Below are positions 3,281 to 48,427 of a stretch of DNA of 64,000 bases, one piece after another. A program made the position numbers and the translations under genes. The notes beneath the pieces are model-generated. The model had not been told where the DNA came from, did no database searches, and saw only the letters and a program-made list of their open reading frames with translations. Positions within the stretch are counted from its first letter, which is position 1. Each line of letters opens with the position of its first letter. This DNA is from Monocercomonoides exilis PA203 (taxonomy: Eukaryota; Protista; Preaxostyla), in contig LSRY02000071.1 in assembly GCA_001643675.2 (NCBI GenBank), forward strand, positions 108,347-172,346. Direction: 5' to 3'.

Positions 3281-3282
3281 AA

Positions 3283-3358
<76 letters not shown>

Positions 3359-3366
3359 AAGAAGGC
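3281..3366 (+). repeat. 9-bp tandem repeat (AAGGCGAAG) x ~9.5 in a purine-rich low-complexity tract
   Basis: Directly visible; it produces the spurious AFFAFF ORF on the minus strand. Confidence 0.9.
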
Positions 3367-8519: not shown

Positions 8520-10186
8520 GTGTATGGTCAAAAAATCAAAAGAGAAGGAAGCGTTTCAATAAGAAAATCTCTCATCTCATCTTCTTCCTCATTCCTCTCA
8601 TCGCCTTCCATCCCTTTTGTATCCCTCTCTCATTTGATATTTTTCAACATCTCAACAGCAAATGAGGCATGCTCACCTTCAACCACTGCGTCAGCCCAAA
8701 CCTCATGTTTTCTGAACAGTTGCTCTTTTTCATCAGTTTGTGATACATATGATGGCGGAATTGTCCCCTCTCTGAACAACCCCTTAGCCTCTTTGACAGC
8801 CTCAAACACCTCATTCATTGGGTGTTGTCGGACAAGAAATGTTGTATGCGAAGGAACTGCAGAGGTACCATTGAAACCAGACAGACAGAATGAAACATTC
8901 AATGGAGCGAATACATTTGTTTGGTGCGAATGGAGTAGATCGAGGACAACAGGAACAAGCGATTCTGTTTCAGATGGAATATCGAGTGGTGGGGCTATCT
9001 GCATGTACAGCCAGACGTCAGCATCGGTGTCCGTTTCCCACTGCACTTTCAACAACTGCTATGCGTATTATGATGGAGGAGCAATCATGTGCTATAACAT
9101 CAAATCTGTTGGGGTAGTTAACAATACATTCAACTCATGCTCCACGCAAGCCTGGGCCGGAGGTGGAATGTACGCTTATGTAATTTCTTCATGTATTTGT
9201 ATCGGTGAGTGTGACTTCCAGAATTGTAGAGCAAATTATTACGGAGGAGGATTATGCCTTGATAATTTTCAGGTTACAGAAACAGGATGCATTCCAACAG
9301 AAAATGGAGGAGGGGAAAGTGCGTGTGTATTTGACTGCAGCTTCACTTCATGCTCATTGACAAACAATGGGGGTGGAGGCATGTATTGTGTAAATATCCC
9401 TTCAACTCAGTTCAAAATGAGGAGCATTCAGTTTATTTCATGTTCAGCAATGGGATATGGAGGAGGTTTGGAATTATATCCAAATCGAGCAGCAGCACCA
9501 AATGATAAAAATTATTGTTATTTTTGTTCTTCCATGAATGCAAGTGCAGAACAACTTCTACTCCGTATGGGCATGATGTTGAATATGTTGATACTTACAA
9601 TGTCTATTTGAACTCAGGAAATCCGTTCTTTGAATGCTATACAACGAACGCAGATGAGAAGAGAATGTGCTATGCATACAACTACTCGAATGCAGGTGCT
9701 TGGACATTTGATCAAACATCAAAAAAGGATTGGCTGAAGGATAAGACGATTTATGTTTCTGTGAGTGGGAATGATACATCTCCATTTTGCGGGGCAAATG
9801 GATCAAATCCGTGTCTGACAGTGAAGAAGGCGTTTGAGATGTGTGAAATACAGATAAGCTTGTCAGTCACGCTGATGGAAGGGGATCACACAAGCGAAGC
9901 AACAACGATTGATATTGGGGCAAAGAAGATTTCAGTCATTGGGAAGGGAAGGGAAGCAAGTTCGATTGGAACAGGAACACTTTCAGCAGCAGAAGCGCTG
10001 TTCAGTATGACGAGTGGCCATTTGGGAATGAGCCATTTGAAGGTTGATTGCAACTCAACAGCAGATTTTTCTTCACCAAGCGTGGTAGTGGCATCTGATG
10101 GAGCAGGCAGAACACTTTCCCTGAAAGAATGTTTCAGGAAGAGAGTTATTTGTATGCAGAAAACGATAGCCGAAGGATGCAAATAG
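8520..10186 (+). pseudogene. Cassette C3 (mirror of C4), module B; split by a 1-bp poly-T difference at ~9521-9525
   Basis: ORFs 8520-9611 and 9515-10186 together equal the 555-aa C4 ORF; T5 here versus T6 in the mirror copy. Confidence 0.8.
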
Positions 10187-12715: not shown

Positions 12716-14383
12716 CTATTTGCATCCTTCGGCTATCGTTTTCTGCATACAAATAACTCTCTTCCTGAAACATTCTTTCAGGGAAAGTGTTCTGCCTGCT
12801 CCATCAGATGCCACTACCACGCTTGGTGAAGAAAAATCTGCTGTTGAGTTGCAATCAACCTTCAAATGGCTCATTCCCAAATGGCCACTCGTCATACTGA
12901 ACAGCGCTTCTGCTGCTGAAAGTGTTCCTGTTCCAATCGAACTTGCTTCCCTTCCCTTCCCAATGACTGAAATCTTCTTTGCCCCAATATCAATCGTTGT
13001 TGCTTCGCTTGTGTGATCCCCTTCCATCAGCGTGACTGACAAGCTTATCTGTATTTCACACATCTCAAACGCCTTCTTCACTGTCAGACACGGATTTGAT
13101 CCATTTGCCCCGCAAAATGGAGATGTATCATTCCCACTCACAGAAACATAAATCGTCTTATCCTTCAGCCAATCCTTTTTTGATGTTTGATCAAATGTCC
13201 AAGCACCTGCATTCGAGTAGTTGTATGCATAGCACATTCTCTTCTCATCTGCGTTCGTTGTATAGCATTCAAAGAACGGATTTCCTGAGTTCAAATAGAC
13301 ATTGTAAGTATCAACATATTCAACATCATGCCCATACGGAGTAGAAGTTGTTCTGCACTTGCATTCATGGAAGAACAAAAAATAACAATAATTTTTATCA
13401 TTTGGTGCTGCTGCTCGATTTGGATATAATTCCAAACCTCCTCCATATCCCATTGCTGAACATGAAATAAACTGAATGCTCCTCATTTTGAACTGAGTTG
13501 AAGGGATATTTACACAATACATGCCTCCACCCCCATTGTTTGTCAATGAGCATGAAGTGAAGCTGCAGTCAAATACACACGCACTTTCCCCTCCTCCATT
13601 TTCTGTTGGAATGCATCCTGTTTCTGTAACCTGAAAATTATCAAGGCATAATCCTCCTCCGTAATAATTTGCTCTACAATTCTGGAAGTCACACTCACCG
13701 ATACAAATACATGAAGAAATTACATAAGCGTACATTCCACCTCCGGCCCAGGCTTGCGTGGAGCATGAGTTGAATGTATTGTTAACTACCCCAACAGATT
13801 TGATGTTATAGCACATGATTGCTCCTCCATCATAATACGCATAGCAGTTGTTGAAAGTGCAGTGGGAAACGGACACCGATGCTGACGTCTGGCTGTACAT
13901 GCAGATAGCCCCACCACTCGATATTCCATCTGAAACAGAATCGCTTGTTCCTGTTGTCCTCGATCTACTCCATTCGCACCAAACAAATGTATTCGCTCCA
14001 TTGAATGTTTCATTCTGTCTGTCTGGTTTCAATGGTACCTCTGCAGTTCCTTCGCATACAACATTTCTTGTCCGACAACACCCAATGAATGAGGTGTTTG
14101 AGGCTGTCAAAGAGGCTAAGGGGTTGTTCAGAGAGGGGACAATTCCGCCATCATATGTATCACAAACTGATGAAAAAGAGCAACTGTTCAGAAAACATGA
14201 GGTTTGGGCTGACGCAGTGGTTGAAGGTGAGCATGCCTCATTTGCTGTTGAGATGTTGAAAAATATCAAATGAGAGAGGGATACAAAAGGGATGGAAGGC
14301 GATGAGAGGAATGAGGAAGAAGATGAGATGAGAGATTTTCTTATTGAAACGCTTCCTTCTCTTTTGATTTTTTGACCATACAC
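12716..14383 (-). CDS. Cassette C4: beta-helix repeat protein fragment, module B, extends to VVASDGAG
   Basis: 555-aa ORF, GTG start, no signal peptide; contains all family anchors and WLKDKTIYVSVSGND..CG..SNPCLTVKKAF. Confidence 0.8.
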   Translation of the reverse strand: MYGQKIKREGSVSIRKSLISSSSSFLSSPSIPFVSLSHLIFFNISTANEACSPSTTASAQTSCFLNSCSFSSVCDTYDGGIVPSLNNPLASLTASNTSFIGCCRTRNVVCEGTAEVPLKPDRQNETFNGANTFVWCEWSRSRTTGTSDSVSDGISSGGAICMYSQTSASVSVSHCTFNNCYAYYDGGAIMCYNIKSVGVVNNTFNSCSTQAWAGGGMYAYVISSCICIGECDFQNCRANYYGGGLCLDNFQVTETGCIPTENGGGESACVFDCSFTSCSLTNNGGGGMYCVNIPSTQFKMRSIQFISCSAMGYGGGLELYPNRAAAPNDKNYCYFLFFHECKCRTTSTPYGHDVEYVDTYNVYLNSGNPFFECYTTNADEKRMCYAYNYSNAGAWTFDQTSKKDWLKDKTIYVSVSGNDTSPFCGANGSNPCLTVKKAFEMCEIQISLSVTLMEGDHTSEATTIDIGAKKISVIGKGREASSIGTGTLSAAEALFSMTSGHLGMSHLKVDCNSTADFSSPSVVVASDGAGRTLSLKECFRKRVICMQKTIAEGCK

Positions 14384-14996
14384 CTTTTTTGCCTCTTGGC
14401 GCCTTCCGCAAATAATTTTCTAAAGTCAGATTCTTTCCCCGCCTCTTCTGCTGGAGACGATTGGTTCCTATTAAAAGCAGAAAATCATCTTTTTTCTTCA
14501 ATGCTTCTGAATGGAAACTACATTCAAACATTCTTCATTATCTATCTTCAACAAATTCTCTTTTTCGGCTACTATAATCTGCTGCCTTCTTTCTATATTC
14601 CATTCGCATTCTTCGCTTTTGAATATTCATGCAAAAAATTCTTATTGAAATAAAATAATTATAAAAAAATAAATGATTTAAAATCGTTCAAAGAAAAATA
14701 TGAAAAAAATATAACAGAAACATCAAAGAATTAATATTGTACAAGAAAAATAAAACAAATTATACAGCTAACCTTTTTATTTTGAGTTTTCTTCACACAC
14801 TTTTTCTTCCTCGTTGTTTCTTCTCCTCCTCCAACCAGTATTCCCTCATCCCTCCAATTTCAATCTCAAAACCCTTCTTCTCCATCTCCGCTTTCCATCT
14901 CACGACCAATGAAATCGATCCTCTTCTGCTTCCAAATTTTGTTCATTTCCTTTCCTCATCATGGCTTCCAGCCGAATAATTCCAACAGCCAAAATA

Positions 14997-16574
14997 TTAA
15001 AAATAGACGATGGAGACAATATAATTGAAGATACTAAAACAGAAATTGAAGATATTAATGAAGAAGAAGAAGAAGGTGAAAATGTGTCTGAAGGAGATGA
15101 AAAAAATAAAAGGAAGAGAATAAAAATACTGCAGAGCAGAGAATAAAAGCAAAACAGCTCCTGTTCCAATCACGCTCTTCTCTTTGCCCATTCCAATAAC
15201 TGAAATCTTCTTTTCTCCAATATCAATCGTTGTTGCTTCGCTTGTGTGATCCCCTTCCATCAGCGTGACTGACAAGCTTATCTGTATTTCACACATCTCA
15301 AACGCCTTCTTCACTGTCAGACACGGATTTGATCCATTTGCCCCGCAAAATGGAGATGTATCATTCCCACTCACAGAAACATAAATCGTCTTATCCTTCA
15401 GCCAATCCTTCTTTTCCTTGTGCTGATATGTCCAACCCTTAGAATCCGTATAATCATATCCGTAGCATACTCTCTGATCATCTGTATTTGTTGTGTAACA
15501 TTCATAGAACGGACTATTCGAGGATAAATACAGGCTATATCGATCTTCATAATATACATCATGGCCATGAGGCTGATCTCTTGAACATCTACATCCGTGA
15601 AAGAAAAGGAAGAAACAATAATAATCATTGACAGGCGCTGAAGTCTTGTCTGGAAACAAATCCAATCCCCCGCCATGCGAAAACGCTGTGCACGATATGA
15701 ATTTGATATTTCTCATTTTGAATTCTGTTGCGGGCACACTTCGACAATACATGCCTCCGCCATATGAATTTGTGACTGAGCATGAAGTGAAACAGCAGTC
15801 AAACACACACGCACTCTCCCCTTCTCCATTTTCTGTTGGGATGCATCCTGCTCCTGAAACCTGAAAATCATTAAGATAAAGTCCTCCCCCGCCACTGCTT
15901 GCTTTGCAAGTCTGGAATTCGCATCCGCTGATCCGAACACATGTTGAAATCGCATGAACGCACATTCCTCCGCCAAATTGATTTTGAGCAATACAAGAAT
16001 TATAAAAGTTGTTTCTGATGTCCACCGATTTGATTGTATGTGCCATGATGGCTCCTCCATCCCAACTTGCGTAACAGTCATTGAATGCACAATGCGTAAC
16101 GAACATTTCTCCAGACTTAAGATTATGCATATAAATCGCACCGCCATTCGAACCGCTATCAGAACCGTCTTGAACATTTCCTGTAGCCTTTGATCCATTC
16201 CACTCGCACCAAGTGAATGTATTCGCTATATTTTCTGTAATGCTTTGTCTCTCTGGCTGTTTCTTATTATCTGCATTTCCTTCACATACAACGTTTTTTG
16301 TCCGACAACACCCAATAAATGAAGTGTTTGAGGCAGTCAGAGGGGCCAAGGGATTGTTGAGGGAGCGAACAATTCCGCCATCATACACATCGCAGACTGA
16401 TGAGAATGAGCAGCTGCTCATAAAACATGAGGTTTTGGTTGACGTAGTTGTTTGAGATGAACATTCCGATGTTGCTGTTGAAATATTGAAAAAAGTGAGC
16501 TTGGAAAGGGATACAAGAGGAATGGAACGTGACGAGAGAAATGCCGTTGAAGATGAGAAATGCGATTCATTCAC
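14997..16574 (-). CDS. Cassette C5: beta-helix repeat protein fragment, module B
   Basis: 525-aa ORF, GTG start a few codons after an in-frame TGA; family homology ends at IGTGA and the remainder is read-through into low-complexity flank. Confidence 0.8.
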   Translation of the reverse strand: MNESHFSSSTAFLSSRSIPLVSLSKLTFFNISTATSECSSQTTTSTKTSCFMSSCSFSSVCDVYDGGIVRSLNNPLAPLTASNTSFIGCCRTKNVVCEGNADNKKQPERQSITENIANTFTWCEWNGSKATGNVQDGSDSGSNGGAIYMHNLKSGEMFVTHCAFNDCYASWDGGAIMAHTIKSVDIRNNFYNSCIAQNQFGGGMCVHAISTCVRISGCEFQTCKASSGGGGLYLNDFQVSGAGCIPTENGEGESACVFDCCFTSCSVTNSYGGGMYCRSVPATEFKMRNIKFISCTAFSHGGGLDLFPDKTSAPVNDYYCFFLFFHGCRCSRDQPHGHDVYYEDRYSLYLSSNSPFYECYTTNTDDQRVCYGYDYTDSKGWTYQHKEKKDWLKDKTIYVSVSGNDTSPFCGANGSNPCLTVKKAFEMCEIQISLSVTLMEGDHTSEATTIDIGEKKISVIGMGKEKSVIGTGAVLLLFSALQYFYSLPFIFFISFRHIFTFFFFFINIFNFCFSIFNYIVSIVYF

Positions 16575-19500
16575 TGAAATTCTTCATTTTTTGCCTCCTT
16601 CTCTTCCTCATGCCTCTTGGCGCCACGAAGCAAAATATCTAAATAAGCTCAGATTCCTTTTTCCAATCTCTTCCGCCCCTTCTTCATCGTCTGCTTTCCC
16701 GGTATTCCTTTTCCTTTTGTTTCCATCTTTTGCTCCTAACCTTGTTCCATTCGCATCCATTCATTTTGAATATTCACGCAAAAAACCCCTGCTATCATTA
16801 AAAAAATATATATTTAATAAAACAAAATTTATAAAAAATACAAAAATATAAAATTGTAATAAAAATTTCAATTAATTAATATGAAAAGCCCCGTACCATT
16901 TTCTTTTCACCATCTTCCACTTCTTCTTCTCGACTTTTTCTCAAATTTCTTCTTCTGCCATATCATCAATTCCTTGATCTCATTTTTCGCTTTAAACAAG
17001 TTTCATCGTAAATGCCTTCCAAAACCTTCAAATAAAAATATCTTCTTCTCGTTTCCTTGATATTTCATCCGGCTCATTTCTCATTACTCCCCTCCAATTA
17101 TTATGTCCTGATTTCTTTTAATGCATCCAATATCCCCTCTTGACATATTCCTTGTTCATTCATTGCCATTGAGCAGTCCTGTGAAAAAACCTAATTTCAT
17201 AAATAAAAAATATATAAAAAATTAAAATTAAAAAAATATAAATACGCACCCTTATAATGATCATTCTTCTCAAACTTTCTTCTCCTCCTCCAAATATCGT
17301 TCCTTTCTGCCTATAGATTCCATCTGTCTCGTCTTCGCTTCACCTCCAATTCCTCAAAAAATATTAGTCAAAGTCCAACTTCTTGTTCTGCTTCTCTCAA
17401 ATAACCTCCACAAACTCCATTCTATAAAAAAATGAAAAGACATGAGCATTCTATCTGAATAACCCCTTCCCATCCCTTTCCGCTGTATCGCCTTCTTCTT
17501 CTCTCCGTTTCCTCCAAAACAACAACAACGCCCCTCCACCACATATCCTCCATCTCTTCCATAAACAATTGCAAAATTCCTTTCTTTTTCACTCCTTGTA
17601 ACACCTTTTCCCATCATCCTTCTCTAATCAAAAAATAAATACCTCCATCCTTTTTCTGTCTCTTTCCATTGCAAAACACCTCCCATAGTCAGCTCCTCAT
17701 CTTCCTCTGTCTCCACACCTCCAATGCAAAGTGCCAGCGCTGATGTTCCTTCTTCCCGTCTTCCTCCGCATCCGCCTCCAACACTTGTCCTGCAAATGAG
17801 AGGCGCGGCCAAACGGTTCACAAAATAAATTATATAAAAATATGAAGAAAATTTTTCTTCACTTTTTTTTCTTCAACCCCGCTTCCCCCTCTAATTATAC
17901 ACGCACTCACAAAAACTTTTCCACCTTGCCCTGCCTCATATGAACCCCCTCTCTCTCCCTGCATTTGAAAATAAAAAAACATCTCCTCCACACATCTCTC
18001 CATCTCTAATCCTCCACTCCGATAAATATATTCCATTCGCTTCACCCATCTTTTGCCCTTCTTGTTTTCCCCTCTTATCCCACCTCCTCCACATCAAATT
18101 CCTTTTCTCCACAATAAACACGACTTATGCACCTTCCAACTCACAAAAATCTCAAAAATAACCCCTCCAGGCTCCATCCTTATCCATCTCCCACACATCC
18201 ATTTTGCCTCTGAAATATCACTAAAACACCTCTTTCTCCCCCAAAAATCTTCCTTTTATCGTTTCATTTCCTCTCAAAACCCTGCCTCCTCCAAAAACGT
18301 AACTTCATCACCCCACGCCATAAATCCATCCTATTGTTATCGCATTGTCTTCATATGCCCGTTCAGCCACGACACATCGAGTTGTGCTCCTTTTCTTTTG
18401 TGGCTCTTATTCGTTATGGAACATGATCAAGCAATATCAAATGCTCAGAAACTGCCAACGGAGTGAGACTCCGAAGCTAAAACAAAGGCAGATTGACCAA
18501 GTGAAATATTTCCAGCGAATGGGTTGAGTATTGCAAAAGAATATTTGTTTGATGGAAGATGAAATTGTTCATTTTGATTGATGGAATGCTGTGGAGCAAC
18601 AATATTTTCGATGGAAATGAAGAATTTTCAATGTATGCATTTTATATTGTTCTATATGTTGTGAAGATATTTCCGTCCGTATCCTCTCCAAAGTCGTGAT
18701 TCAGACGATTTATTTAAAATGGACAATCTATTCTTTGCAGAGCAGAACAGCGAGGAAGTGAGCCAAATATTTTCTTACAAATATATTAGAGCCTGAATGT
18801 ATTTTATCATAAATATTTATGTTACAAATTTTGGACTCAACATGCACAATCGATAGAAATGCGATGAATATGAATATTAATGGAGCGGAAATCAACGGGG
18901 TTGGAAGATATCCAAGGCCAAAAGGAAGAATGTCCAATCTCTATGAAAAGGGAGCGATTTTTTTGAAAAAAGGAAGAGGACATTTTCAGAAAAAGCATTG
19001 TTGGAAAGATTGGGGCAAATGACTGAAACAGGAGATTGAAATCAGTTTGGACAGAACAAGGAGCCTTTCTTTGGAGAAGAAGGGCAAGACATTGATTTTA
19101 CGGACCAAGGGGAGCGATGGAACTGGAATTCATTGCTTGGCTTTTGAACCAAATATACGAGAAAAACAGGCAGTTTGGAGTAATACAGGCAGCTGGAGGC
19201 AAATGATAGGCAAAATGGACTTTGAATCATTTTGCTATCGCCTTTTGCATTGCATCATCGAAGGGTTATTCACAAGAGCAGAGAACGAGGTTGCGATGCT
19301 GAAGATATCTTCTGACAGAAGACACATAGTATTCAAACTTGACAATAACATCGCATTCACCATCTTCATCATCTTCATCTCTGTCATTGCCATCATTGCT
19401 GTCATTATCTTCTTCTTCTTCATTAAAAATTATATTGAAGCATTTTTATTATTTGTGTGTTATTCGAGCGGAATCAGTGCCGAGGATTGGAAATAAAGCA

Positions 19501-26768: not shown

Positions 26769-28652
26769 TTAAAATTCTAATGAATATATTTCACTTTCAT
26801 AAAAAACAACCACACTCGGCGAAGGACTTGCACTTGAGTTGCAATCAACCTCCATGTGCAATAAACCAAGATGACCTGTCGTCACACTGAACAACGTTCC
26901 TACTGCTGATGATGATGAAAGGGCTCCTGTTCCAATCGAACTCTCCGTCCTCCCTTTCCCAATGACTGAAATTTTCTTCGATCCAATCTCAATTGTTGTT
27001 GTCTCGCTCGTGTGATTCCCTTCCATCAGCGTGACTGACAGGCTCACTTGAATCACGCTCCTTTCAACTGCAACACCAATGGTTCGGCATGCACTTCGCT
27101 CATCCAATCCACATAACTCTTCTGTGCTTCCTCCACTCACAGCCACAAATCGATTGAGAATCCCTCTTTTCAGCCAATTCCACTTTTCGGTGTGCTTGTG
27201 GATCCAATTAGTACCATCATAGTGTTCATAAAACATTCTCCTATCATCAGCATTTGTAGTATAGCACTCGTAAAACGGATTACCAGAATCCAAAAATTGT
27301 TTGTGATAATCTGCATATGCAATATCATGGCCGAATGGAGGATTGGCCGAGCATTTGCATTCATGGAAGAAAAGGAAATAGCAATAAATAATATCATTTT
27401 GCGATGTTTGTCTATTCGGATACAATCTTAAACCTCCGCCATATGCAGTTGCAGAGCAAGAAATAAACTGAATGCTCCTCATTTTGAATTGCGTGGCAGG
27501 AACAGAAGCGCAATACATGCCTCCACCATAATTATTTGTAATTGAGCATGAAGTGAAACAGCAGTCAAACACGCACGCACTCTCCCCTTCTCCATTTTCT
27601 GTTGGAATGCATCCTGTTCCTGAAACCTTGAAATCATTAAGATAAAGCCCTCCTCCATAGCCAGAAGCCTGACAACTCCGAAATTCACATTCGCTGATTC
27701 GAGTGCATGTTGAAGTTGTATAAACACATATCCCTCCTCCAATCCATGTTCGAGCAGTGCACGAGTCGAATGTGTTATTTGTAATATCAACCGATTTGAT
27801 GTTGTAGCAATGAATGCCTCCTCCCGAATAATACGCTTCACATCCACTGAACGAACAGCATTTCACTGAAAGCGTTCCAGACGATAAGCTGAACATGCAG
27901 ATTGCTCCACCATTCGAAGAGCCATCGGTGTATGAGCTAACTTCTCCTGTTGTCTTCGATCCGTTCCACTCGCACCAAGTGAATGAATTAGCTCCATTGG
28001 CTGTTGTGTTCTGTCTCCCTGGCTGTTTCTTATTATCTGCATTTCCTTCACATACAACATTTCTTGTCCGACAACATCCAACGAATGATGTGTTCGAAAC
28101 AGATAAGGAAGCCAAGGGGCTGTTCAGAGAAGGAACAATCCCGCCATCATATGCATCACAAACAGACGAAAATGAGCAACTGCTCATCAAACATGAGGCT
28201 TGGGTTGACGTAGTTGTTGAAGGTGAACATGCATCATTTGCTGTCGAGATGTTGAAAAAAGTGAGTTTGGAGAGGGACATTAGGGGAATAGAAGGGGATG
28301 ACAGGAATGGGGCTGATGAGACACAAAAAGAAGAGAAATGTGATTCACTCACTGAAATACTCCCTTCAATGCCTTCTCCATATCCATCTCCTTCTCTTCC
28401 TTTTCCTCTTCCTCTTTCTCCTCCTTCTCCTCCTTTTTCTTCATCTCCACTCTTCTCCCTTCCATGTCCCTTCCCTCCAAACAGCCTGCCTGAATAGATC
28501 TCTCTCCCTCTTCCCCACCCTTTCAATGTAATGTTTGTCAACACCCCAATGCTCCCACTCACATCAAATGCCCCTGCCCCATCATCCTTCCCCATTCCCA
28601 CAACACACCCTCTCACCACAACCACACTCCCCTTCCTTCCACTCACCCCCAA
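26769..28652 (-). CDS. Cassette C7: beta-helix repeat protein fragment with Gly/Glu-rich leader, module A (mirror of C12)
   Basis: 627-aa ORF, TTG start; leader homologous to C1; homology ends at PSPSVVV. Confidence 0.8.
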   Translation of the reverse strand: MGVSGRKGSVVVVRGCVVGMGKDDGAGAFDVSGSIGVLTNITLKGWGRGREIYSGRLFGGKGHGREKSGDEEKGGEGGERGRGKGREGDGYGEGIEGSISVSESHFSSFCVSSAPFLSSPSIPLMSLSKLTFFNISTANDACSPSTTTSTQASCLMSSCSFSSVCDAYDGGIVPSLNSPLASLSVSNTSFVGCCRTRNVVCEGNADNKKQPGRQNTTANGANSFTWCEWNGSKTTGEVSSYTDGSSNGGAICMFSLSSGTLSVKCCSFSGCEAYYSGGGIHCYNIKSVDITNNTFDSCTARTWIGGGICVYTTSTCTRISECEFRSCQASGYGGGLYLNDFKVSGTGCIPTENGEGESACVFDCCFTSCSITNNYGGGMYCASVPATQFKMRSIQFISCSATAYGGGLRLYPNRQTSQNDIIYCYFLFFHECKCSANPPFGHDIAYADYHKQFLDSGNPFYECYTTNADDRRMFYEHYDGTNWIHKHTEKWNWLKRGILNRFVAVSGGSTEELCGLDERSACRTIGVAVERSVIQVSLSVTLMEGNHTSETTTIEIGSKKISVIGKGRTESSIGTGALSSSSAVGTLFSVTTGHLGLLHMEVDCNSSASPSPSVVVFYESEIYSLEF

Positions 28653-29402: not shown

Positions 29403-31079
29403 TTAAAATTGACGAGAATAACGAAGAAAGCGAAGAAGAGGAAGAAGATGAAAATTGTTGAATAAGGGAAAAACAGCTTCTGTTCCAATCGAACTCTCCG
29501 TCCTCCCTTTCCCAATGACCGAAATCTTCTTTGATCCAATATCAATCGTTGTTGCTTCGCTTGTGTGATTCCCTTCCATCAGCGTGACTGACAGGCTCAC
29601 TTGAATCACGCTCCGACTGACTGCAACACCAATGGTTCGGCATGCACTTGACTCATCCAGTCCACATAACTCTTCTGCGTTTCCTCCGCTCACCGCCACA
29701 AACCGATTGAGAATCCCTCTTTTCAGCCAATTCCACTTTTCGGTGTGCTTGTGGATCCAATTAGTACCATCATAGTGTTCATAAAACATTCTCCTATCAT
29801 CAGCATTTGTAGTATAGCACTCGTAAAACGGATTACCAGAATCCAAAAATTGTTTGTGATAATCTGCATATGCAATATCATGGCCGAATGGAGGATTGGC
29901 CGAGCATTTGCATTCATGGAAGAAAAGGAAATAGCAATAAATAATATCATTTTGCGATGTTTGTCTATTCGGATACAATCTTAAACCTCCGCCATATGCA
30001 GTTGCAGAGCAAGAAATGAACTGTATGCTCCTCATTTTGAATGCAACTGGAACAGTGTTACACCACATCCCTCCACCAACAGAATTAACAACCGAGCATG
30101 AAGTGAAATTGCAGTCAAACACACACGCACTTTCCCCTTCTCCACTTTCTGTTTCAATGCATCCTGTTCCAGATACCTGAAATGATTGCAATATTAATCC
30201 TCCTCCATAGCTTGATGCCTTGCAATTCCGGAATTCACAATCACTGATCCGAGCACATGATGAAATAGAGCTGGCATACATTCCGCCTCCATGTTGGTTT
30301 TGAGCTGTACACGCATTGAACACATTATTTTCGATATACACAGAATTGATTGTGTTGCACATAATTCCACCTCCACGGCTGTATGCAAAGCAATTATTAA
30401 ACAGACAACGTGAAACAGAGAGCTCTCCATTTCCCTTGTTGTACATCCAAATTGCACCTCCACTCGATATTCCATCAGCATACGAGTCACTTTCTCCTGT
30501 CGTCTTCGATCCATTCCATTCACACCAAACAAATTTATTCGCTCCATTATCTGTTGTATTTTGCCTCTCTGGAGTCAACTTTCCATCTGAAGTTCCTTCA
30601 CATAAAACATTCCTTGCCCGACAACATTTAATAAAAGAGGTGTTTGAAGCTGTCAGAGAGGTAAAGGGATTGTTGATGGAAGGGACAATCCCGCCATCAT
30701 ATGCATCACAAACAGACGTAAATGAGCAGCTGCTCATCAGACATGTAGCTTGGGTTGACATTGTGGTTGAAGGTGAACATGCCTCATTTGCTGTTGATAT
30801 GTTGAAAAATGTCAAATGAGAAAGAGATATAAGGGGTGAAGAGGGAGATGATAAAAAATTGGCAAAAAGAAGAGAAGTGCAACTCACACACAAAAATACT
30901 ATCTTCGACGCTGTCTTCTCTTCCTCTGCCTCTTGGAGCAATCTGGCAAAATATTTAATAAATTCAAAATCCCTCTTCCCGCCTCTTCCGCTGCTTCTCA
31001 AAGGGATATCCATAAGAGAAAAGCATCTTTTTTCTTCAGTGCCACCAAATGGAAACGGAACTCCAATATTATTTGTCAA
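29403..31079 (-). CDS. Cassette C8: chimeric copy (C11 backbone with a C12/C7-type segment at 29582-30012), module A
   Basis: 558-aa ORF identical to C11 except between FIS and MEGNH. Confidence 0.85.
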   Translation of the reverse strand: MTNNIGVPFPFGGTEEKRCFSLMDIPLRSSGRGGKRDFEFIKYFARLLQEAEEEKTASKIVFLCVSCTSLLFANFLSSPSSPLISLSHLTFFNISTANEACSPSTTMSTQATCLMSSCSFTSVCDAYDGGIVPSINNPFTSLTASNTSFIKCCRARNVLCEGTSDGKLTPERQNTTDNGANKFVWCEWNGSKTTGESDSYADGISSGGAIWMYNKGNGELSVSRCLFNNCFAYSRGGGIMCNTINSVYIENNVFNACTAQNQHGGGMYASSISSCARISDCEFRNCKASSYGGGLILQSFQVSGTGCIETESGEGESACVFDCNFTSCSVVNSVGGGMWCNTVPVAFKMRSIQFISCSATAYGGGLRLYPNRQTSQNDIIYCYFLFFHECKCSANPPFGHDIAYADYHKQFLDSGNPFYECYTTNADDRRMFYEHYDGTNWIHKHTEKWNWLKRGILNRFVAVSGGNAEELCGLDESSACRTIGVAVSRSVIQVSLSVTLMEGNHTSEATTIDIGSKKISVIGKGRTESSIGTEAVFPLFNNFHLLPLLRFLRYSRQF

Positions 31080-36474: not shown

Positions 36475-39134
36475 ATCCTTCTATTTTTTCAATGTAACAA
36501 TTCATATGATTTTTATTTTTTCATTCATTAGCCAACTGCTTTTGAATGATTTTTCAGACAACAAAGTTTTTCTTTAAAAAAACTTCAGATTTTTCTTTTT
36601 TCATTCTTTTTTTTTTTTAAATGTTATTTACACAGCATTTTTTTATAACAAAATAAAAAAAATCAAACAGTTCCCTTGTTTGAAAGGAAATATGAAATTT
36701 CGGAACAAACTGTTGAAGAACTTCAAAAATGATTTGTTGATGAACAAACAAACAAATGGATAAATGAATGGATGAATGGATGAAAATATGGAAAGGATGA
36801 ATATTACCAGACAAGAGTATTTTCACAGCAACTGATGAATGAAAAAGGAAAACGATAACTTTTTTTTTGTATTTTTGTCAAATAATATCAAACTCTTCTG
36901 ATTTGTCAATCATTCATTTTCATTTTGACAGGGGAAAATAAAAATGAAAACAATTATTCATTGAGAAATCAGGGGAATTAGAAAATGGGCTTTATCGTGA
37001 TTTAAATGAGAAATATTTATCAAAATGAAAAATTAAAATAAAAAAAGAAATCAAAACTTTTTTATTAGAAATGATTATTTTTCATTGATATTTAACTATA
37101 TATCCTTTTTTATATCCACCATAAGGCACTCAATGGCTTTCAAAATCATGATTTCAAAATTAATCACTCATATTGATTTTTTTAGAATTGAATGTTTCTT
37201 TTTTGTTTATTTTGATTTCATTTCTTTTTTACCAAAACAAATTATTCTTTCACAAAACGATGAAAAAGAAGTTTTTGAAATGTGCCAACACCGATTCATT
37301 TGTTCTTTTTATGTTTTTGTTTTCCAATTTCAATTTTGATAGTTTATTTTGATGAGGGAGATTGCTTATCTTATCTCATAAGTTTTCTGTCAAAAATATC
37401 GGTTTGAAATTGAGATTGGGACACTTTGAAATGGACACTTGAAAGTGATAACAGCATTGTGACAGTTCATTATTTGAATTTTTTTGTCTCAAATATAAGG
37501 TTTGTTTGGTTATTGAAATGCTTGGATCGTTTCAACTGAATATTCACAAAACAATCTCGAAAAACTGTGTGATCATCCATTCTCCAAATAATTTTCTGGT
37601 CTCATAAATCATTTTTTATCTTAATCTTAATTATTTCTTTTCATTTGATTCAAAATTTGTGGAATATATTTATTGTCTCATTCATAGAATATTTCTTTTT
37701 GAAAATTCATGAATGTCATTTCAAAAAATAAGTTTGATTGTTTCTTATATTTTGATGATTTTCATATTATAGCATTTCATTAAATCGAAAATATAAAGTT
37801 TGTAAAATACATTGAATGTGCTACTGCAATTTATTGAATGTGTTTGATGAGTTTAATCAAAAACCTTTGAAATAATACAAATAACCTTTTGATTACTTCG
37901 TTTGAGACTTTTCAAAAAGAAATTGAAATAGAATAAGATAATAAATCTAATCCACAAATATTGAACCAAATGAAAAGAAATAATCGAGATCAATATGGAA
38001 AATGATTTTTGAGATCAGAAAATAAATTGGAGAATGGATGATCATACAGCTTTTCGAGATTGACTTGTGAATATTCAGTTGAAGTGATATAGGCTTTTCA
38101 ATAACCAAACAAACCTTATATTTGAGACAAAAAAATTCAAATAATGAACTGTCACAATGCTGTTATCACTTTCAAGTGTCCATTTCAAAGTGTCCCAATC
38201 TCAATTTCAAACCGATATTTTTGACAGAAAACTTATGAGATAAGATAAGCAATCTCCCTCATCAAAATAAACTATCAAAATTGAAATTGGAAAACAAAAA
38301 CATAAAAAGAACAAATGAATCGGTGTTGGCACATTTCAAAAACTTCTTTTTCATCGTTTTGTGAAAGAATAATTTGTTTTGGTAAAAAAGAAATGAAATC
38401 AAAATAAACAAAAAAGAAACATTCAATTCTAAAAAAATCAATATGAGTGATTAATTTTGAAATCATGATTTTGAAAGCCATTGAGTGCCTTATGGTGGAT
38501 ATAAAAAAGGATATATAGTTAAATATCAATGAAAAATAATCATTTCTAATAAAAAAGTTTTGATTTCTTTTTTTATTTTAATTTTTCATTTTGATAAATA
38601 TTTCTCATTTAAATCACGATAAAGCCCATTTTCTAATTCCCCTGATTTCTCAATGAATAATTGTTTTCATTTTTATTTTCCCCTGTCAAAATGAAAATGA
38701 ATGATTGACAAATCAGAAGAGTTTGATATTATTTGACAAAAATACAAAAAAAAGTTATCGTTTTCCTTTTTCATTCATCAGTTGCTGTGAAAATACTCTT
38801 GTCTGGTAATATTCATCCTTTCCATATTTTCATCCATTCATCCATTCATTTATCCATTTGTTTGTTTGTTCATCAACAAATCATTTTTGAAGTTCTTCAA
38901 CAGTTTGTTCCGAAATTTCATATTTCCTTTCAAACAAGGGAACTGTTTGATTTTTTTATTTTGTTATAAAAAAATGCTGTGTAAATAACATTTAAAAAAA
39001 AAAAGAATGAAAAAGAAAAATCTGAAGTTTTTTAAAGAAAAACTTTGTTGTCTGAAAAATCATTCAAAAGCAGTTGGCTAATGAATGAAAAAATAAAAAT
39101 CATATGAATTGTTACATTGAAAAAATAGAAGGAT

Positions 39135-42413: not shown

Positions 42414-43875
42414 GGCAAGTGCATACTTAACCTTACATGAAATTTTTTAAATATTTTTTATCAAAACAATAAAAAATATTATTACAAGCAATTATCAATT
42501 CAAATTAGCAGCGGAAAATTGTATATAAAAAATGAAATATTTTTTGAAAAGATCAAAAATACCATAATTAAAATTTTTCATTTGGGCACAAAATATGGAA
42601 ATTTTGTTAATATGAGGATTTATAACAAAAATAATCGAATGTTTATTAATTATTTTTTCACCCATGTCTCTAGTTCCTGATAAGAAATCAGATGTTGCTG
42701 ATTATAACAAGCTTTTTCAAGATTTAGAAAAGAGTTGGGAGTGGTTCATTCATATTATCAACTTAAATGAAACGAAAAAATGTCCATCTTGCAGAAGATA
42801 CATGAAACTTACAACAGTTGATGAAACAAATCGATCATGGAGATGTTCAGCATGTAACAAATTCATTTCATATTTGAAGGAGACATCTTTTTATCGAAGT
42901 CATATCAAATTCAACTCAATATTTCTTATTCTTTTGCATTTCTGGCTGAAAATTCGAATTGATCAATGCTCATATATGACTGGAGTTGGTCGAAATACAG
43001 TCGGTTATTGGTATTCTGTTGCAAGAGCATCAATTGGAATTCGAATGTCGAGTGTGAGGTTTGCTCTTGGAGGAGAAGGATGCATTGTGGAAATAGATGA
43101 GGCAATTCTGAGAAAAAGAAAATTTCACAAAGGGAAAAAGAAGAAACAAATATGGCTTTTTGGTTCAGTGGAAAGAAAAGAAAATGATGAAATTGGAAAA
43201 TGTTTAATAATCAGAGTTCCAAACAGAAAAAAGGAGACTCTGATTCCCATCATTGAAGCCAACATCCAGAAAGGAACAACGATTTACAGTGATGAGTGGG
43301 GCGCATATAAATGCTTGAATGAATTAGGTTACAAACATCAGACAGTTTGCCACAAATACGAATTCAAAAATACAGAAACAGGAGTATGCACAAATTTGAT
43401 AGAAGGTTGTTGGTCTCATTTCAGAAGATCATTGCCTCCATGTGGAATCAAAGAAAAGTTCATTGATGATTTTATTGCTTCATTTTTGCTTCAACGAGAA
43501 AAAGATATGCTATTCCCAGAGTTTGTGAGGAATGTTACTAATTTCAAACCTACTGAAGCTGCATTTCCCCATGACTATGATGATGGAGAAGGAGACGATG
43601 AAGCAGATGTTCCCCAAATTGAGCAGGAAGCAGTTGAAATTCATGAAGATGATTATGACGATCCATAAGATGGAGCAGATGCTAGTGAATATTCTGAATC
43701 TTAACATTTTTGATCATATTAAATAATTATTTTTTTATTTTTTCATACACTTTTTTAATTGAAATAACTAAAACCCGCAATTATTAACATGTTATTTATG
43801 CATTACAACAATTAATTAATAAAACCAAAGTCGTTTGAATCATTTTTGGCTTGTAAGGTAAAGTGAGCATATGCC
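42414..43875 (+). mobile_element. Merlin-superfamily (IS1595/IS1016-related) DNA transposon, 1,462 bp, apparently autonomous
   Basis: 8-bp TSD CCGAACTG (42406-42413 and 43876-43883). Imperfect 24-bp TIRs starting GGCA (19/24 match). Empty site with a single CAGTTCGG at 33196-33203 in the other arm. Confidence 0.93.
42664..43668 (+). CDS. ISXO2-like / DDE_Tnp_IS1595 (Merlin) transposase
   Basis: 334 aa with ATG start; N-terminal CPSC..CSAC Zn ribbon; motifs VEIDE, IYSDEWGAY, H.TVCH, TNLIEGCWS; acidic tail. Confidence 0.92.
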   Translation: MSLVPDKKSDVADYNKLFQDLEKSWEWFIHIINLNETKKCPSCRRYMKLTTVDETNRSWRCSACNKFISYLKETSFYRSHIKFNSIFLILLHFWLKIRIDQCSYMTGVGRNTVGYWYSVARASIGIRMSSVRFALGGEGCIVEIDEAILRKRKFHKGKKKKQIWLFGSVERKENDEIGKCLIIRVPNRKKETLIPIIEANIQKGTTIYSDEWGAYKCLNELGYKHQTVCHKYEFKNTETGVCTNLIEGCWSHFRRSLPPCGIKEKFIDDFIASFLLQREKDMLFPEFVRNVTNFKPTEAAFPHDYDDGEGDDEADVPQIEQEAVEIHEDDYDDP

Positions 43876-45997
43876 CCGAACTGCCAAATATTCTCGTATT
43901 TTCGACTTTCAAGCTAAGCAATGAAAAGTAGTTCCACACCTTTTCTCAGTCCGTAAAAATATTGTCTTGTCCTTATCAACCCAAGAAAATCCATTCGTCC
44001 AGCAACAACCGCCAATCTCCTGTTTCAGCCACTTGTCTCCATTTTCCATTCAATGCATCCACTCCAATCCCTCCAACAAATTTTCTGAAAATGTCTTCTT
44101 TCTCTTTTTTAAAAAAAGGCAGCCTTTTCAGAAAAATTGGTCACACTTCCTTCTTGTCTTTGGCATTTTCCGACTCCATGAATTTCTGCTCCATCAAAAC
44201 TCGTTTTTCGTTGCATTTCGACCCATTGCATGTTGAGTCAAAAATAACTGTGAAAATTTTCGTTAAAAAAAGCCTTCATGTTTTAATATCTGCTATTTTT
44301 AAGATAATGTTTGGCTTCCTTCCCTGTTGTTCTCCTCTTCATTAATAAAAAAAATAAATTGACTTATAATATAAATTGTCCGAATCATGACTTGGGGAAG
44401 GATACGGATGAAAATATCTTCACATTATATAGAATTATCAGAAATACATATATCCCGTGATATATATTATATTTTCAAAGCATCGGTGCTCCATGCCCTT
44501 TCTTGAACAAAAAATCACTTCATATCTTTCCAAATTCAACACCAGTCCCAGTCGCACAAGGCGCCTTCAAAAACAATAATTTAGCAAATCCACCATAAAA
44601 TATTATTGTCTGATGCCCTCCCATTAACAAAGGTAGTTTTCAGTTTTTTCTTTTTTTCAAAATTGTGACGATCGTATGCATAATTAAAGACTGGAATAGA
44701 CAAATTGTATTTTTCTCGGTACACTCCGAGTACTGACGCAAAGGCCGGCAGATGTGCAATGACGGATGTTATTTGCATTACGGCGAGGTGGTTGCGGGTG
44801 TTTTGAATTTGAAAGGGCGTTGGTGTCGGGGATGTTGGCTAATTCGATAATTGGGATTGTTTTGTGTGTTTTTTTGGGGAGAGTTGTGGAGATGAAGGGA
44901 GGACAAGAGGAAAGAAAAATTTTAGAAGATGAGGATGTTTTGCCTTTTGCTTTCAGCAGGTTGTTAGAATGTGTTTGCTATGTTTTTTGATTCTTGTGGT
45001 TTGTTGTGGATAATGTGTATTGTGGGCAGTAACGGTGGTGGCAGTGTTGCGCATTGAGGATGAAATGGATGCTAGCAGAAGAGGGTTGGTTGGGGAAGTG
45101 TGATATTTTAGAGAGAGAGAAATGGAAAATTACAATATGAAAAAATGAAATAAATCAATAGAGGAATGAAAGGGAGGAGGGGAAAAGGCGAAGAGGCAAT
45201 AGAAAGATGAAGGCTGTGGAAGTGTCGGAAATTGGCAGCAGGAGAGGGGAGCAGATGGGATGAGAAGGAAAGAGCAAAGGAAGATGGCAGAAAAATGGGG
45301 TGAATGATGGCTGAGAGAGGTGACATCTTGGGGGTTTTGGTGTTGCTGCGATGAAGCAAATGGGCAAGGTGTGGGCCGCGTGCTTTGCTGGAGGAAGGGA
45401 GAGTTGAGCGGAAAGGACAGGGAAGAGGAGGGAAGGGAAGCGGAAGGGGGGCAGTTATCATTTCTGGATGTTGACACATGAGGTGTGTGTGAATTCGATA
45501 TTTATTTGTTTATTTGTTTTTTGTTTGTTTGTTTATGGTTTTATTTTCAAAGAGATATGTGCTTTTTGTGAAAATGATTGACAAAAGTGAAGATTGATCT
45601 GGCGCGATGAGAGGATAGCACGAAATAGCATTGGAAGCATTGAGAAGTGACAGGGCTGGGAGGTCTGTTTGCGAGGTGAAGAACGGAGGAAGCAATGCTG
45701 AACAGGCTGGGGCTGGCAAGAAAAGAAGAGGAAGGAGAAGAGGAAGATTGCAAAAAGAAAGAGGTACAGTTTATTTATTAATTTTTATTTTTATAAAAAT
45801 ACTTTGTTTTTTAATTTCATATTTTTTTATATTGAAATATATTTATTTTCGTTGTCTGTTATTTTTCTTTATATTTTTTTCTGTTTTTTTATTGATACTG
45901 GAGCCCTTGCATGTGTTCAAAATATATGCGAGAAAATTGAATTTGGAAAGAAGACAGGAAATGACAACAGAAGAAAAAGAGATTCTGTGGAAAACAG

Positions 45998-47677
45998 TTG
46001 ACAAATAATATTGGAGTTCCGTTTCCATTTGGTGGCACTGAAGAAAAAAGATGCTTTTCTCTTATGGATATCCCTTTGAGAAGCAGCGGAAGAGGCGGGA
46101 AGAGGGATTTTGAATTTATTAAATATTTTGCCAGATTGCTCCAAGAGGCAGAGGAAGAGAAGACAGCGTCGAAGATAGTATTTTTGTGTGTGAGTTGCAC
46201 TTCTCTTCTTTTTGCCAATTTTTTATCATCTCCCTCTTCACCCCTTATATCTCTTTCTCATTTGACATTTTTCAACATATCAACAGCAAATGAGGCATGT
46301 TCACCTTCAACCACAATGTCAACCCAAGCTACATGTCTGATGAGCAGCTGCTCATTTACGTCTGTTTGTGATGCATATGATGGCGGGATTGTCCCTTCCA
46401 TCAACAATCCCTTTACCTCTCTGACAGCTTCAAACACCTCTTTTATTAAATGTTGTCGGGCAAGGAATGTTTTATGTGAAGGAACTTCAGATGGAAAGTT
46501 GACTCCAGAGAGGCAAAATACAACAGATAATGGAGCGAATAAATTTGTTTGGTGTGAATGGAATGGATCGAAGACGACAGGAGAAAGTGACTCGTATGCT
46601 GATGGAATATCGAGTGGAGGTGCAATTTGGATGTACAACAAGGGAAATGGAGAGCTCTCTGTTTCACGTTGTCTGTTTAATAATTGCTTTGCATACAGCC
46701 GTGGAGGTGGAATTATGTGCAACACAATCAATTCTGTGTATATCGAAAATAATGTGTTCAATGCGTGTACAGCTCAAAACCAACATGGAGGCGGAATGTA
46801 TGCCAGCTCTATTTCATCATGTGCTCGGATCAGTGATTGTGAATTCCGGAATTGCAAGGCATCAAGCTATGGAGGAGGATTAATATTGCAATCATTTCAG
46901 GTATCTGGAACAGGATGCATTGAAACAGAAAGTGGAGAAGGGGAAAGTGCGTGTGTGTTTGACTGCAATTTCACTTCATGCTCGGTTGTTAATTCTGTTG
47001 GTGGAGGGATGTGGTGTAACACTGTTCCAGTTGCATTCAAAATGAGGAGCATACAGTTCATTTCATGTTCGGCGCGACAAGAGGGAGGAGGATTATGCTT
47101 CAGACCAGAAAAAACAGAAAAACCAGTCAATGGAACTTATTGTTATTTTTTGTTCTTTCATGAATGCAATTGCAGGGATGCAACTAATCCATACGGGCAT
47201 GATGTTGAGTATGTCGATACATACAATCTGTATTTGGGTTCAGGAAATCCGTTTCATGAATGTTACACCACAAACACAAACGATAAGAGGATCTGCTTTG
47301 CATTCAATTATGCTGATGCAGGTGCTTGGTCATATCAACACACAGAAAAGATGGATTGGCTAAAGGATAAGACGATATATGTTTCTGTTGGTGGAGATGA
47401 TAATTTTGAGTTGTGTGGGTCAAATGAATCAAATCCGTGTCTGACAGTGAAGAAAGCGTTTGAGATGTGTGAGGTGCAGATAAGCTTGTCAGTCACGATG
47501 ATGGAAGGGAATCACACAAGCGAAGCAACAACGATTGATATTGGATCAAAGAAGATTTCGGTCATTGGGAAAGGGAGGACGGAGAGTTCGATTGGAACAG
47601 AAGCTGTTTTTCCCTTATTCAACAATTTTCATCTTCTTCCTCTTCTTCGCTTTCTTCGTTATTCTCGTCAATTTTAA
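45998..47677 (+). CDS. Cassette C11 (mirror of C8) carrying its own unique variable segment and module B
   Basis: 559-aa ORF, TTG start; 47065-47498 differs from the mirror copy. Confidence 0.85.
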   Translation: MTNNIGVPFPFGGTEEKRCFSLMDIPLRSSGRGGKRDFEFIKYFARLLQEAEEEKTASKIVFLCVSCTSLLFANFLSSPSSPLISLSHLTFFNISTANEACSPSTTMSTQATCLMSSCSFTSVCDAYDGGIVPSINNPFTSLTASNTSFIKCCRARNVLCEGTSDGKLTPERQNTTDNGANKFVWCEWNGSKTTGESDSYADGISSGGAIWMYNKGNGELSVSRCLFNNCFAYSRGGGIMCNTINSVYIENNVFNACTAQNQHGGGMYASSISSCARISDCEFRNCKASSYGGGLILQSFQVSGTGCIETESGEGESACVFDCNFTSCSVVNSVGGGMWCNTVPVAFKMRSIQFISCSARQEGGGLCFRPEKTEKPVNGTYCYFLFFHECNCRDATNPYGHDVEYVDTYNLYLGSGNPFHECYTTNTNDKRICFAFNYADAGAWSYQHTEKMDWLKDKTIYVSVGGDDNFELCGSNESNPCLTVKKAFEMCEVQISLSVTMMEGNHTSEATTIDIGSKKISVIGKGRTESSIGTEAVFPLFNNFHLLPLLRFLRYSRQF

Positions 47678-48427
47678 ACATTTTGGTTGCATGAATTGTT
47701 CGAGTGCGAGCGAAGCTGAGATTGGAAATGAGCACAATTTTGGAGCAGAAGAGAAGCAATGCTATTGGCTGTGATACTGGCAGCTGAGACATAGCAGATG
47801 GGTTTTGCAAGCAGAAAGGAGCAATATTTTGAAAGACAAAAGATGATGATGAAGAAGAATATGTAAATGAAGTGTGATTATTTTTGAAGCTCATGAAATA
47901 AAAATGTTTCTTTTTCAATTTTTCTTTTTCAATTTTTCAAATATTTTCTTTTAATGATATTGGAATGTTTGCACAAATTCCCAATGCCAATGCACTCGCA
48001 AGGAATATGGAAAGATGGCGTTTTGACATTTTTGCTCAGCAAAAGGTTCAACGGTTTTTGTATAGATAAAGGAAAATGCGGGCTCAACAATGGAAACGAA
48101 TAGAAGAGGAGTCCTTTTATTGCTTTGTGAGGCATATAGTGCAATCATGCCAAAAGAAAAGAGAAAAAAAGAAAAAAACTGATGAAATGACAGAAGAAGG
48201 AGTCTGACGAGAGATTGAGAAGAAGAAATATTTTTTTTGGAACTTCGATTGAAAGAGAAAGTTTTATGAAAATCTGTGAATGAGAAGAAAGAAGGGAAAG
48301 AGAAGATGGATTATATGATTTTGAGGGATGCTTGAGGAAAAATAGAAAGAAAGAAGAAGAGGAAGAAATATTTATATGAGAGAGTTGTGGAACTCATCAG
48401 TTGAGATGAAGAGGGCAGGGCTGGTGG

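Follow-up and report, generated by a model that had tools for sequence, protein, structure and literature searches.

Palindromic cassette arrays in Monocercomonoides exilis: a recent segmental replacement and a possible archive for receptor diversification

Two copies of a coding module that stand as mirror images in the genome of Monocercomonoides exilis PA203 differ solely within one short tract. Where did this tract come from, and what are such copies for? We address both questions in a 64,000-nucleotide stretch (the window) of assembly GCA_001643675.2, contig LSRY02000071.1, positions 108,347 to 172,346 of the forward strand, which holds 14 copies of the module (C1 to C14) in two palindromes. 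A lone conversion tract in a repeat array is ordinary; its setting here is unusual. A preliminary description of the window had interpreted the tract in copy C8 as gene conversion. The recent segmental replacement stands, and what had gone unrecognised is that the copies are truncated cassettes of receptor genes encoding ~2,700 residues; the meaning of the C8 event therefore changes.

The replaced tract in C8

C8 (29403-31079, reverse strand; receptor-homologous part about 29469-30921) and C11 (45998-47677, forward strand) differ solely at 29582-30012 of C8, read on the reverse strand, and 47065-47498 of C11, where 188 alignment columns are unequal. Exact runs border this tract, one reaching over 1,502 bp and the opposite one over 645 bp, and the gene flanks are identical at 783/783 and 92/92 bases. 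The tract measures 431 bp in C8 and 434 bp in C11, which keeps the module-B form, and the frame is preserved, the open reading frames (ORFs) encoding 558 and 559 residues, respectively.

Within the tract, C8 takes after two other copies, C12 (48428-50311, forward strand) and its mirror C7 (26769-28652, reverse strand). Positions 29605-30017 equal C12 50028-49616 at 413/413 bases, 314 of which C7 has in a single run. From 29703 to 29615, C8 has the C12 type at 13/13 of the sites that separate C7 from C12, and at the next three sites (29604, 29601 and 29583) it has the C7 type at 3/3. Because C8 and C12 are merely 558/783 alike upstream of the tract, the match lies far beyond chance. C8 resumes the C11 type within 29581-29557 although homology to C12 goes on. 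The C11-type tract is ~58% alike to the donor type inside (238/407) and is carried by no other copy in the window (best other match 331/434). The 5′ junction, placed by alignment and by words unique to C8 in sequencing run X2 (see below), is the 5-bp ATTTC at 30013-30017 (reverse strand) in the conserved FKMRSIQFIS box, a predicted strand; the 3′ junction, placed by alignment, falls within 29557-29581 (reverse strand), inside the conserved LMEGNHT box, and narrows to 29563-29581 if the template was C7.

The preliminary description had reported the mirror identity on both sides of the tract, the C12-then-C7 composition, both junction boxes and the preserved frame, and our four-way comparison of C7, C8, C11 and C12 reproduces each of these, with agreeing coordinates. 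Three readings go too far. In the first, the event was ‘caught in the act’; the absence of any change over 413 bp marks it as recent and gives no date. The second is a single donor copy; C12-type sequence gives way to C7-type within the tract, and P0095, another close relative of C7 and C12 with 87 identical residues, lies on the same contig beyond the window. In the third, the description had the event looking non-reciprocal; in a monoploid cell, an unequal double crossover between sister chromatids would yield the same sequence.

The alignments support a recent segmental replacement that joins at conserved boxes and leaves the reading frame intact; the tract was likely copied in from the C12/C7 type by ectopic gene conversion. 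The C12-then-C7 pattern may come from a donor beyond the window, from template switching or from patching of C12 at a later time. A second conversion-like tract separates C7 from C12, with 17 differing sites in 142 bp (27009-27150 / 49930-50071) of arms that are otherwise near-identical, and both of its allele types are found again in C1, C6 and C13. A 194-bp exact run of module B (7494-7687, 9725-9918, 12984-13177 and 15217-15410) is common to the non-mirror copies C2/C5 and C3/C4; judged by its distribution, it is an apparently older tract, present in both arms already. Because tracts recur among the window cassettes in this way, the C8 event is shuffling from one copy of the archive proposed below to another.

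Truncated cassettes of giant receptor-like proteins

A search for longer relatives returned 98 proteins, from which we kept a long set of 68 with at least 1,900 residues, excluding P0210-P0218 and long matches under that length. Weak long homologues exist in Blattamonas and Streblomastix. Short homologues were the best 120 of 162 matches to C8, 104 of them with contig information; the array set comprised 78 of these proteins plus 10 window ORFs, with the window-encoded P0001, P0002, P0003 and P0114 excluded. Beyond the window, all comparisons are between predicted proteins rather than DNA.

All 68 long relatives match the window solely within the 14 copies, bar one 15-residue piece just upstream of C7/C12. 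Placed on a receptor profile, the copies start at 193-235 and end at 682-731 (831 for C9/C10); in C7/C12, weak remnants reach back to 137. They cover only about residues 200-730 of single-pass receptor-like proteins of ~2,700 residues, 59 of the 68 having one strong membrane helix. The tail is kinase-like: PF07714 (PK_Tyr_Ser-Thr) scored above cut-off in 4/4 M. exilis receptors scanned, the match spanning only profile positions ~158-257 (the last ~100). Catalytically competent kinases carry VAIK, HRD and DFG motifs. A pattern search found motifs of these types in 0/59 receptors each, and an APE-like motif in 53/59. Because the three motifs are absent in 59/59 and the PF07714 match is partial, the tails are predicted to be pseudokinases. 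The accessible text of PMC6759080 counts 332 kinases in M. exilis, 320 of them tyrosine kinase-like (TKL), as its largest gene family, and that of PMC8767320 notes an overlap of this family with unclassified repeats; the receptors likely belong to these 320 genes.

The cassettes have no signal peptide, membrane anchor or tail, and consist of conserved flanks around a variable core. Among nine window ORFs examined, a hydrophobic N terminus was found in 0/9, there is no common start and the ends are unrelated tails. In both arms, the frame is broken at the 5′ edge of C8/C11, C9/C10 and C7/C12. Meanwhile, the cores are open in 8/9 non-redundant copies at synonymous divergences (dS) of 0.5-1.2, the broken one being C14, and the median ratio of nonsynonymous to synonymous divergence (dN/dS) is 0.30 over 28 pairs. 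Core lengths (1,255-1,267) differ by multiples of three; nucleotide indel lengths, multiples of three in 52/87, were too noisy to be used.

The cassettes lie apart from the receptors. Four contigs carry 82 of the 104 short homologues (among the best 120 of 162), many with consecutive locus tags, and these array contigs carry 0/62 long receptors, which are spread over 31 contigs; one 1,066-residue protein does sit on an array contig. The 64-kb window has no full-length receptor. This suggests that about 80 or more annotated ‘uncharacterized proteins’ are cassettes, not genes. On an 810,774-bp contig, the cassettes of the P0066-P0116 group pair with one receptor set (P0125, P0173, P0180 and P0192), hinting at subfamily-specific arrays.

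A model of the C8 core (443 residues, 104-row alignment) has a mean predicted local distance difference test score (pLDDT) of 69; residues 66-358 mostly reach 70-96 and form stacked β-helix rungs. It aligns to parallel β-helices (VIA Z 18.8, root-mean-square deviation 3.7, 256 aligned), with the top structural rows tied among tailspikes and glycan lyases. The cassette homologue P0006 has Atlas look-alikes at 0.92-0.95 in Pmp and DUF1565 clusters, and GG(A/G)-type β-helix repeats occur in the family. The cassette core is predicted to be a right-handed parallel β-helix (pectin-lyase-like). Counting against this prediction, model residues 1-65 and 360-443 fall below pLDDT 50, and Foldseek returned no match to the model at E<=0.001; Pfam gave 0 families for 10 cassette ORFs at E<=0.1. 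On one rung after another, variability peaks on both sides of the GGG turn, and the columns concerned may form one stacked face of the predicted helix. The C8 tract, at residues ~269-412 of the modelled core, swaps the last rungs together with module A/B. Further along the receptor, motifs similar to module A/B occur again and probably cap the next helix, a role that we presume from the resemblance of module A/B to DUF1565. Since a shared fold shows no function, glycan binding by the receptor tip is a guess.

Tract sharing and the archive reading

The region that the cassettes cover is scrambled among the receptors. In 11 disjoint sister pairs, chosen on residues 1301-2200 only, identity per 30-residue bin is 0.77-0.93 at residues 1-300 and 0.77-0.91 at 721-1290, falling to 0.51-0.70 at 331-690. 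Residues 361-660 are less alike than 721-1300 in 11/11 pairs (median 0.53 vs 0.85; Wilcoxon p=0.001), and across 361-600 sister pairs are about as alike as random pairs (0.51-0.62 vs 0.51-0.59 in 30-residue bins). The cassettes, with their conserved flanks, bracket this zone, in which the mean protein identity between cassette and receptor is 0.574 (residues 331-690, C8 and C12 excluded).

Some receptors share long tracts with cassettes, defined as at least 60 residues at no less than 88% identity and found, at the protein level, in 10/68. Sharp-edged examples are P0170 (MONOS_9379) with cassette P0094 (MONOS_16173), 200 residues at 94% (0.57 before and 0.75 after); P0132 (MONOS_4340) with window copy C13 (55429-57039, reverse strand), 95 residues at 93%; P0173 (MONOS_538) with P0082 (MONOS_15766), 80 residues at 95%; and P0164 (MONOS_14575) with P0006 (MONOS_15866), 68 residues at 97%. 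The tract-sharing cassettes sit on other contigs than their receptors, and identities of 93-97% rather than 100% argue against collapsed assembly. In 10/10 shared tracts checked, the next-closest sequence is a cassette. Position 494 (FKMRS), in the box where the C8 tract has its 5′ junction, is the start of three listed exact runs: C8/C12, P0116/P0066 and P0006/P0164.

Matching against equal pools and trees, both with C8 and C12 excluded, point the same way. For receptor windows at 411-610, the best match is more often a cassette (0.50-0.71) than a receptor (0.21-0.33). Trees at 230-330 hold receptors and cassettes apart, with 12 label changes vs 34.6 when shuffled, and those at 491-600 mix the classes, with 38 vs 44.3 (minimum 34).

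These observations are probably best explained if the palindromic arrays of truncated cassettes are a sequence archive that diversifies receptor tips by segmental conversion, the C8 tract being one event between archive copies. M. exilis is described in the consulted part of PMC6759080 as monoploid, without non-homologous end joining and with homologous recombination (HR). The mechanism that we propose starts from the cassette itself, in which conserved flanks enclose a variable core that corresponds to receptor residues ~200-730. When a cassette or receptor suffers a break, HR would repair it from any copy offering homology. Strand exchange would begin and end in conserved boxes, FKMRSIQFIS and LMEGNHT among them, and the frame would be kept for this reason. 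Tracts are frequent among cassettes, as C8 exemplifies, so that the archive stays mosaic, and dispersed receptors have sharp-edged tracts in common with cassettes and are scrambled in the same zone. A net flow from cassettes to receptors would explain why cassette cores stay open. The swapped residues are predicted to line one face of the parallel β-helix and might alter its ligand, for instance bacterial or host glycans. A more ambitious form, which we offer only tentatively, is that four or more arrays, partly in giant palindromes and some matched to receptor subfamilies, may be dedicated silent libraries that continually rewrite the ligand-binding β-helix of dozens of giant receptor pseudokinases, in a heritable, templated process active over laboratory culture.

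The most serious competitor sees in the tract no more than ordinary ectopic conversion, in a genome rich in repeats that repairs breaks by HR alone; the short copies would be expressed short proteins or passive sinks, and receptors would diversify mainly among themselves and by positive selection. Several observations weigh on this side and against the archive. Long exact peptide runs (at least 40 bits) are rarest between cassette and receptor, at 0.67 per 1,000 pairs vs 5.3 between receptors and 27.7 between cassettes. A tract of at least 60 residues is shared with another receptor in 15/68 receptors (sister pairs included) and with a cassette in the 10/68 given above; non-sister examples are P0182/P0208 (130 residues, 94%) and P0170/P0144 (84 residues, 98%). 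The best score favours a cassette in 36 receptors and a receptor in 28, the classes are partly apart in trees at 331-490 (26 label changes vs 44.7) and 601-690 (28 vs 48.0), and the sister pair P0153/P0157 is barely affected in the scrambled zone (0.87). In addition, the cassette set was picked by likeness to C8 (top 120 of 162), which inflates mutual likeness, a dN/dS below 1 can be inherited, and tracts could enter the arrays from receptors and then spread. The copies may also be expressed: NCBI lists many copies as genes, four RNA runs contain 0.22-0.31 of the window words, in libraries that may hold DNA, and run X5 has exact window pieces, DNA again being possible in such a library.

Set against this are the form of the copies and the position of the tracts. 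The copies differ in where they start, C4 being without the usual Met, and have no signal peptide, and they end in unrelated run-off tails; their limits bracket the scrambled zone of the receptors; frame breaks lie at their edges and not in the cores; and the shared tracts nest among cassettes in 10/10. We therefore regard ordinary conversion as an unlikely full account, albeit the one that competes best with the archive.

The archive would have parallels elsewhere. Archive systems of this kind include msp2 of Anaplasma, pilS/pilE of Neisseria and VSG of trypanosomes. The available part of PMC11499132 treats these as relatives of the vls/vlsE silent-cassette system of Borrelia. As in vls, arrays of partial copies match the central variable part of a surface-protein gene, cassette frames are generally open (here 8/9 non-redundant cores), variation is concentrated in the cassette region between conserved blocks (here in 11/11 sister pairs), tracts are segmental and automatic annotation does not recognise the cassettes. 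However, vls has a single adjacent head-to-head expression site and ~90% DNA identity, as far as that source describes it, whereas here there are at least 59 dispersed membrane-anchored recipients, arrays on other contigs and cassettes ~57% alike to receptors in protein. The recipients are single-pass receptors with a kinase-like tail, and one-way flow and silence are only proposed. Because there is neither a single adjacent expression site nor ~90% identity, we do not file the M. exilis system as a vls-type member.

In chicken immunoglobulin pseudo-V conversion and lamprey VLR assembly, partial donor segments serve to vary a receptor's binding face. VLRs are built as solenoid repeats whose variable residues fall on successive turns, and both systems are somatic, deaminase-driven and confined to one locus per cell lineage. 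The M. exilis cassettes resemble them in being partial donor segments and, for the VLRs, in the predicted solenoid with variable residues on successive turns. In contrast, the changes here would be heritable in a unicell, and no dedicated enzyme was found, none having been sought. The vertebrate systems are the subject of PMC12916377 and PMC12264053.

The closest described families are the M. exilis TKL family (PMC6759080), the transmembrane kinases (TMKs) of Entamoeba (PMC10463195) and the trichomonad and chlamydial Pmp proteins (PMC6701047, PMC11166332). The receptors, too, are expanded protist transmembrane kinases, with a PK_Tyr_Ser-Thr domain after one membrane helix as in the TKL family, and their GG(A/G)-type β-helix repeats resemble Pmp and DUF1565 clusters. 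Unlike the available descriptions of those families, ours concerns the ectodomain, its hypervariable zone, the cassette arrays and conversion, with tails that lack VAIK, HRD and DFG in 59/59. The accessible text of PMC10703272 and PMC10463195 has nothing on M. exilis cassette arrays, and the cassette-receptor architecture is undescribed as far as the searched full-text literature shows, a scope outside which lie subscription papers and the supplement of PMC6759080. Known cassette archives serve antibody-evading pathogens and vertebrate immune receptors; here, in a gut protist that can be cultured, one archive appears to supply an entire family of signalling-type receptors. If true, this would give a role to part of the largest gene family of M. 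exilis and to part of its unclassified repeats. Whether templated recombination gives unicellular eukaryotes diversified sensor repertoires, be it for host surfaces, partners or bacterial prey, also becomes testable.

Other origins of the C8 tract and its surroundings

The C8 tract could also stem from a reciprocal unequal double crossover between sister chromatids, joining the C8/C11 type with C12/C7, whose other product went to the sister cell. Monoploid cells, as the available text of PMC6759080 describes them, retain one product, so the unchanged C12 proves nothing, and both junctions lie in homologous boxes. On the other hand, two crossovers ~430 bp apart would be required between sequences only ~58% alike inside, the C12-then-C7 mosaic is better explained by template copying or later patching, and no copy in the window other than C11 has the C11 tract. 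We consider this origin improbable.

Sequencing runs bear on whether the tract exists at all. Nine public runs contain the stretch, and six (X1-X6) were compared with the window as contig records. Words starting at 29988-30012 are unique to C8 within the window, and in DNA run X2 such words make up an exact 34-letter record at 29988-30021 (depth 90), whose first letter falls precisely at 29988 as predicted; the tract record next to it stops at 30017 and has depth 313. Depth in X2 is 214, 224 and 199 for pieces shared by C8 and C11 and 355 for the tract piece, and 6/7 joint records from other paralogues lie at 82-116. Since there are one junction, two flanks and three tracts, these depths fit 1:2:3 copies, although X2 depth gives no strict copy number and X2 may be the data behind the assembly.

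Other records are less favourable. In the X2 junction record, 25 C12-type letters are joined to a single C8/C11-type base, and the record falls short of bridging the junction with 31 letters per side. In run X3 (2016), a 91-letter record passes unbroken from 30054 through 30013 into C11-type letters at depth 8.7, beside shared pieces at 7.6-9.8, and there is no C8 junction record; the pattern would fit an event that the sample lacks, but variants are lost in contigs and the depth is low; we did not use it as evidence. Run X5 has the tract record ending at 30017 without a junction record, and for X6 no record matched in the comparison with the window. When X1-X4 were compared with C11 and C12, no 47064-to-49621 joint was listed, the junction record being too short and too C12-like to appear. 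Among the 120 protein matches listed, no protein of near length carries the C8/C11 motifs (0/120), so that older gene models offer no independent confirmation. The main X2 and X3 contigs have variant letters at full depth in the C11 flanks (45803-46089 and 47738-48311), which suggests near-identical loci elsewhere, or merged variants.

Because X2 holds the exact record of C8-only words, the tract is almost certainly real in sequence. That C8 is an assembly or polishing chimera, with a true C8 equal to C11 and the third tract copy at another locus, is very unlikely. In its favour, homopolymer indels between arms show that these repeats are prone to assembly errors, the published long-read assembly passed through Canu, Nanopolish and ten rounds of Pilon (according to the accessible methods of PMC8767320), no listed record bridges the junction and the variant flanks suggest similar loci elsewhere. 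Against it, the C8-only words start exactly where predicted, C12-type short reads would scarcely map to a C11 tract that is just 58% alike, and the mosaic reverts to the C11 type while C12 homology continues.

The cassettes are arranged in a giant palindrome (15645-61591), whose arms of about 22 kb, at ~15.6-37.7 kb and ~37.9-61.6 kb, enclose a ~200-bp spacer, and a smaller one (3605-19320; arms 3605-11381 and 11522-19320) with C2-C3 / C4-C5. Inner parts of the giant arms are 99.3-99.8% alike and outer parts 87-91%; across about 6.4 kb outside the two tracts, 5 substitutions plus 4 homopolymer indels separate the inner arms. Primate sex-chromosome palindromes, as presented in the available text of PMC8327919, likewise have multi-kb arms >99% alike, a short spacer and gene-family copies. 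Unlike their arm-to-arm conversion, the C8 tract came from the non-mirror C12/C7 type and made the arms less alike. In both palindromes, sequence adjoining the spacer (11322-11581; 37519-38095) has clearly diverged further than the arms, a pattern to be expected where homogenisation between arms weakens toward the centre. An amplification or fold-back artefact was considered and rejected, as the arms diverge outward and differ by a transposon with a target duplication; the methods of the assembly paper, in the part available, describe no amplification step (PMC8767320). This transposon, of Merlin/IS1595 type, occurs only in the right arm of the large palindrome (42414-43875), with imperfect terminal inverted repeats, an 8-bp target duplication and an ISXO2-like transposase ORF at 42664-43668 (PF12762, E=1e-21).

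The remaining cassettes are C1 (709-2451, reverse strand), C2 (6325-7763, forward) with its mirror C5 (14997-16580, reverse), C3 (8517-10126, forward) with its mirror C4 (12716-14386, reverse), C6 (20234-21763, forward), C9 (34208-36474, forward), the longest, reaching profile position ~830, with its mirror C10 (39135-41401, reverse), and C14 (60683-63109, forward). C14 is broken by frameshifts and split by a 1-kb non-coding element (61595-62605) with long terminal inverted repeats of ~21-bp tandem units; it resembles a foldback/MITE element, and its TA duplication was read by eye. C3 has a 1-bp homopolymer gap at 9520, likely a sequencing error. Gene models of M. exilis match window proteins at 99-100%; C8, C9 and C11 are absent among the matches listed in NCBI protein models, and MONOS_16254 (P0001; 6483-10186) fuses C2 and C3 across the homopolymer gap into a 968-residue protein. 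A perfect 9-bp tandem repeat of about nine copies lies at 3281-3366.

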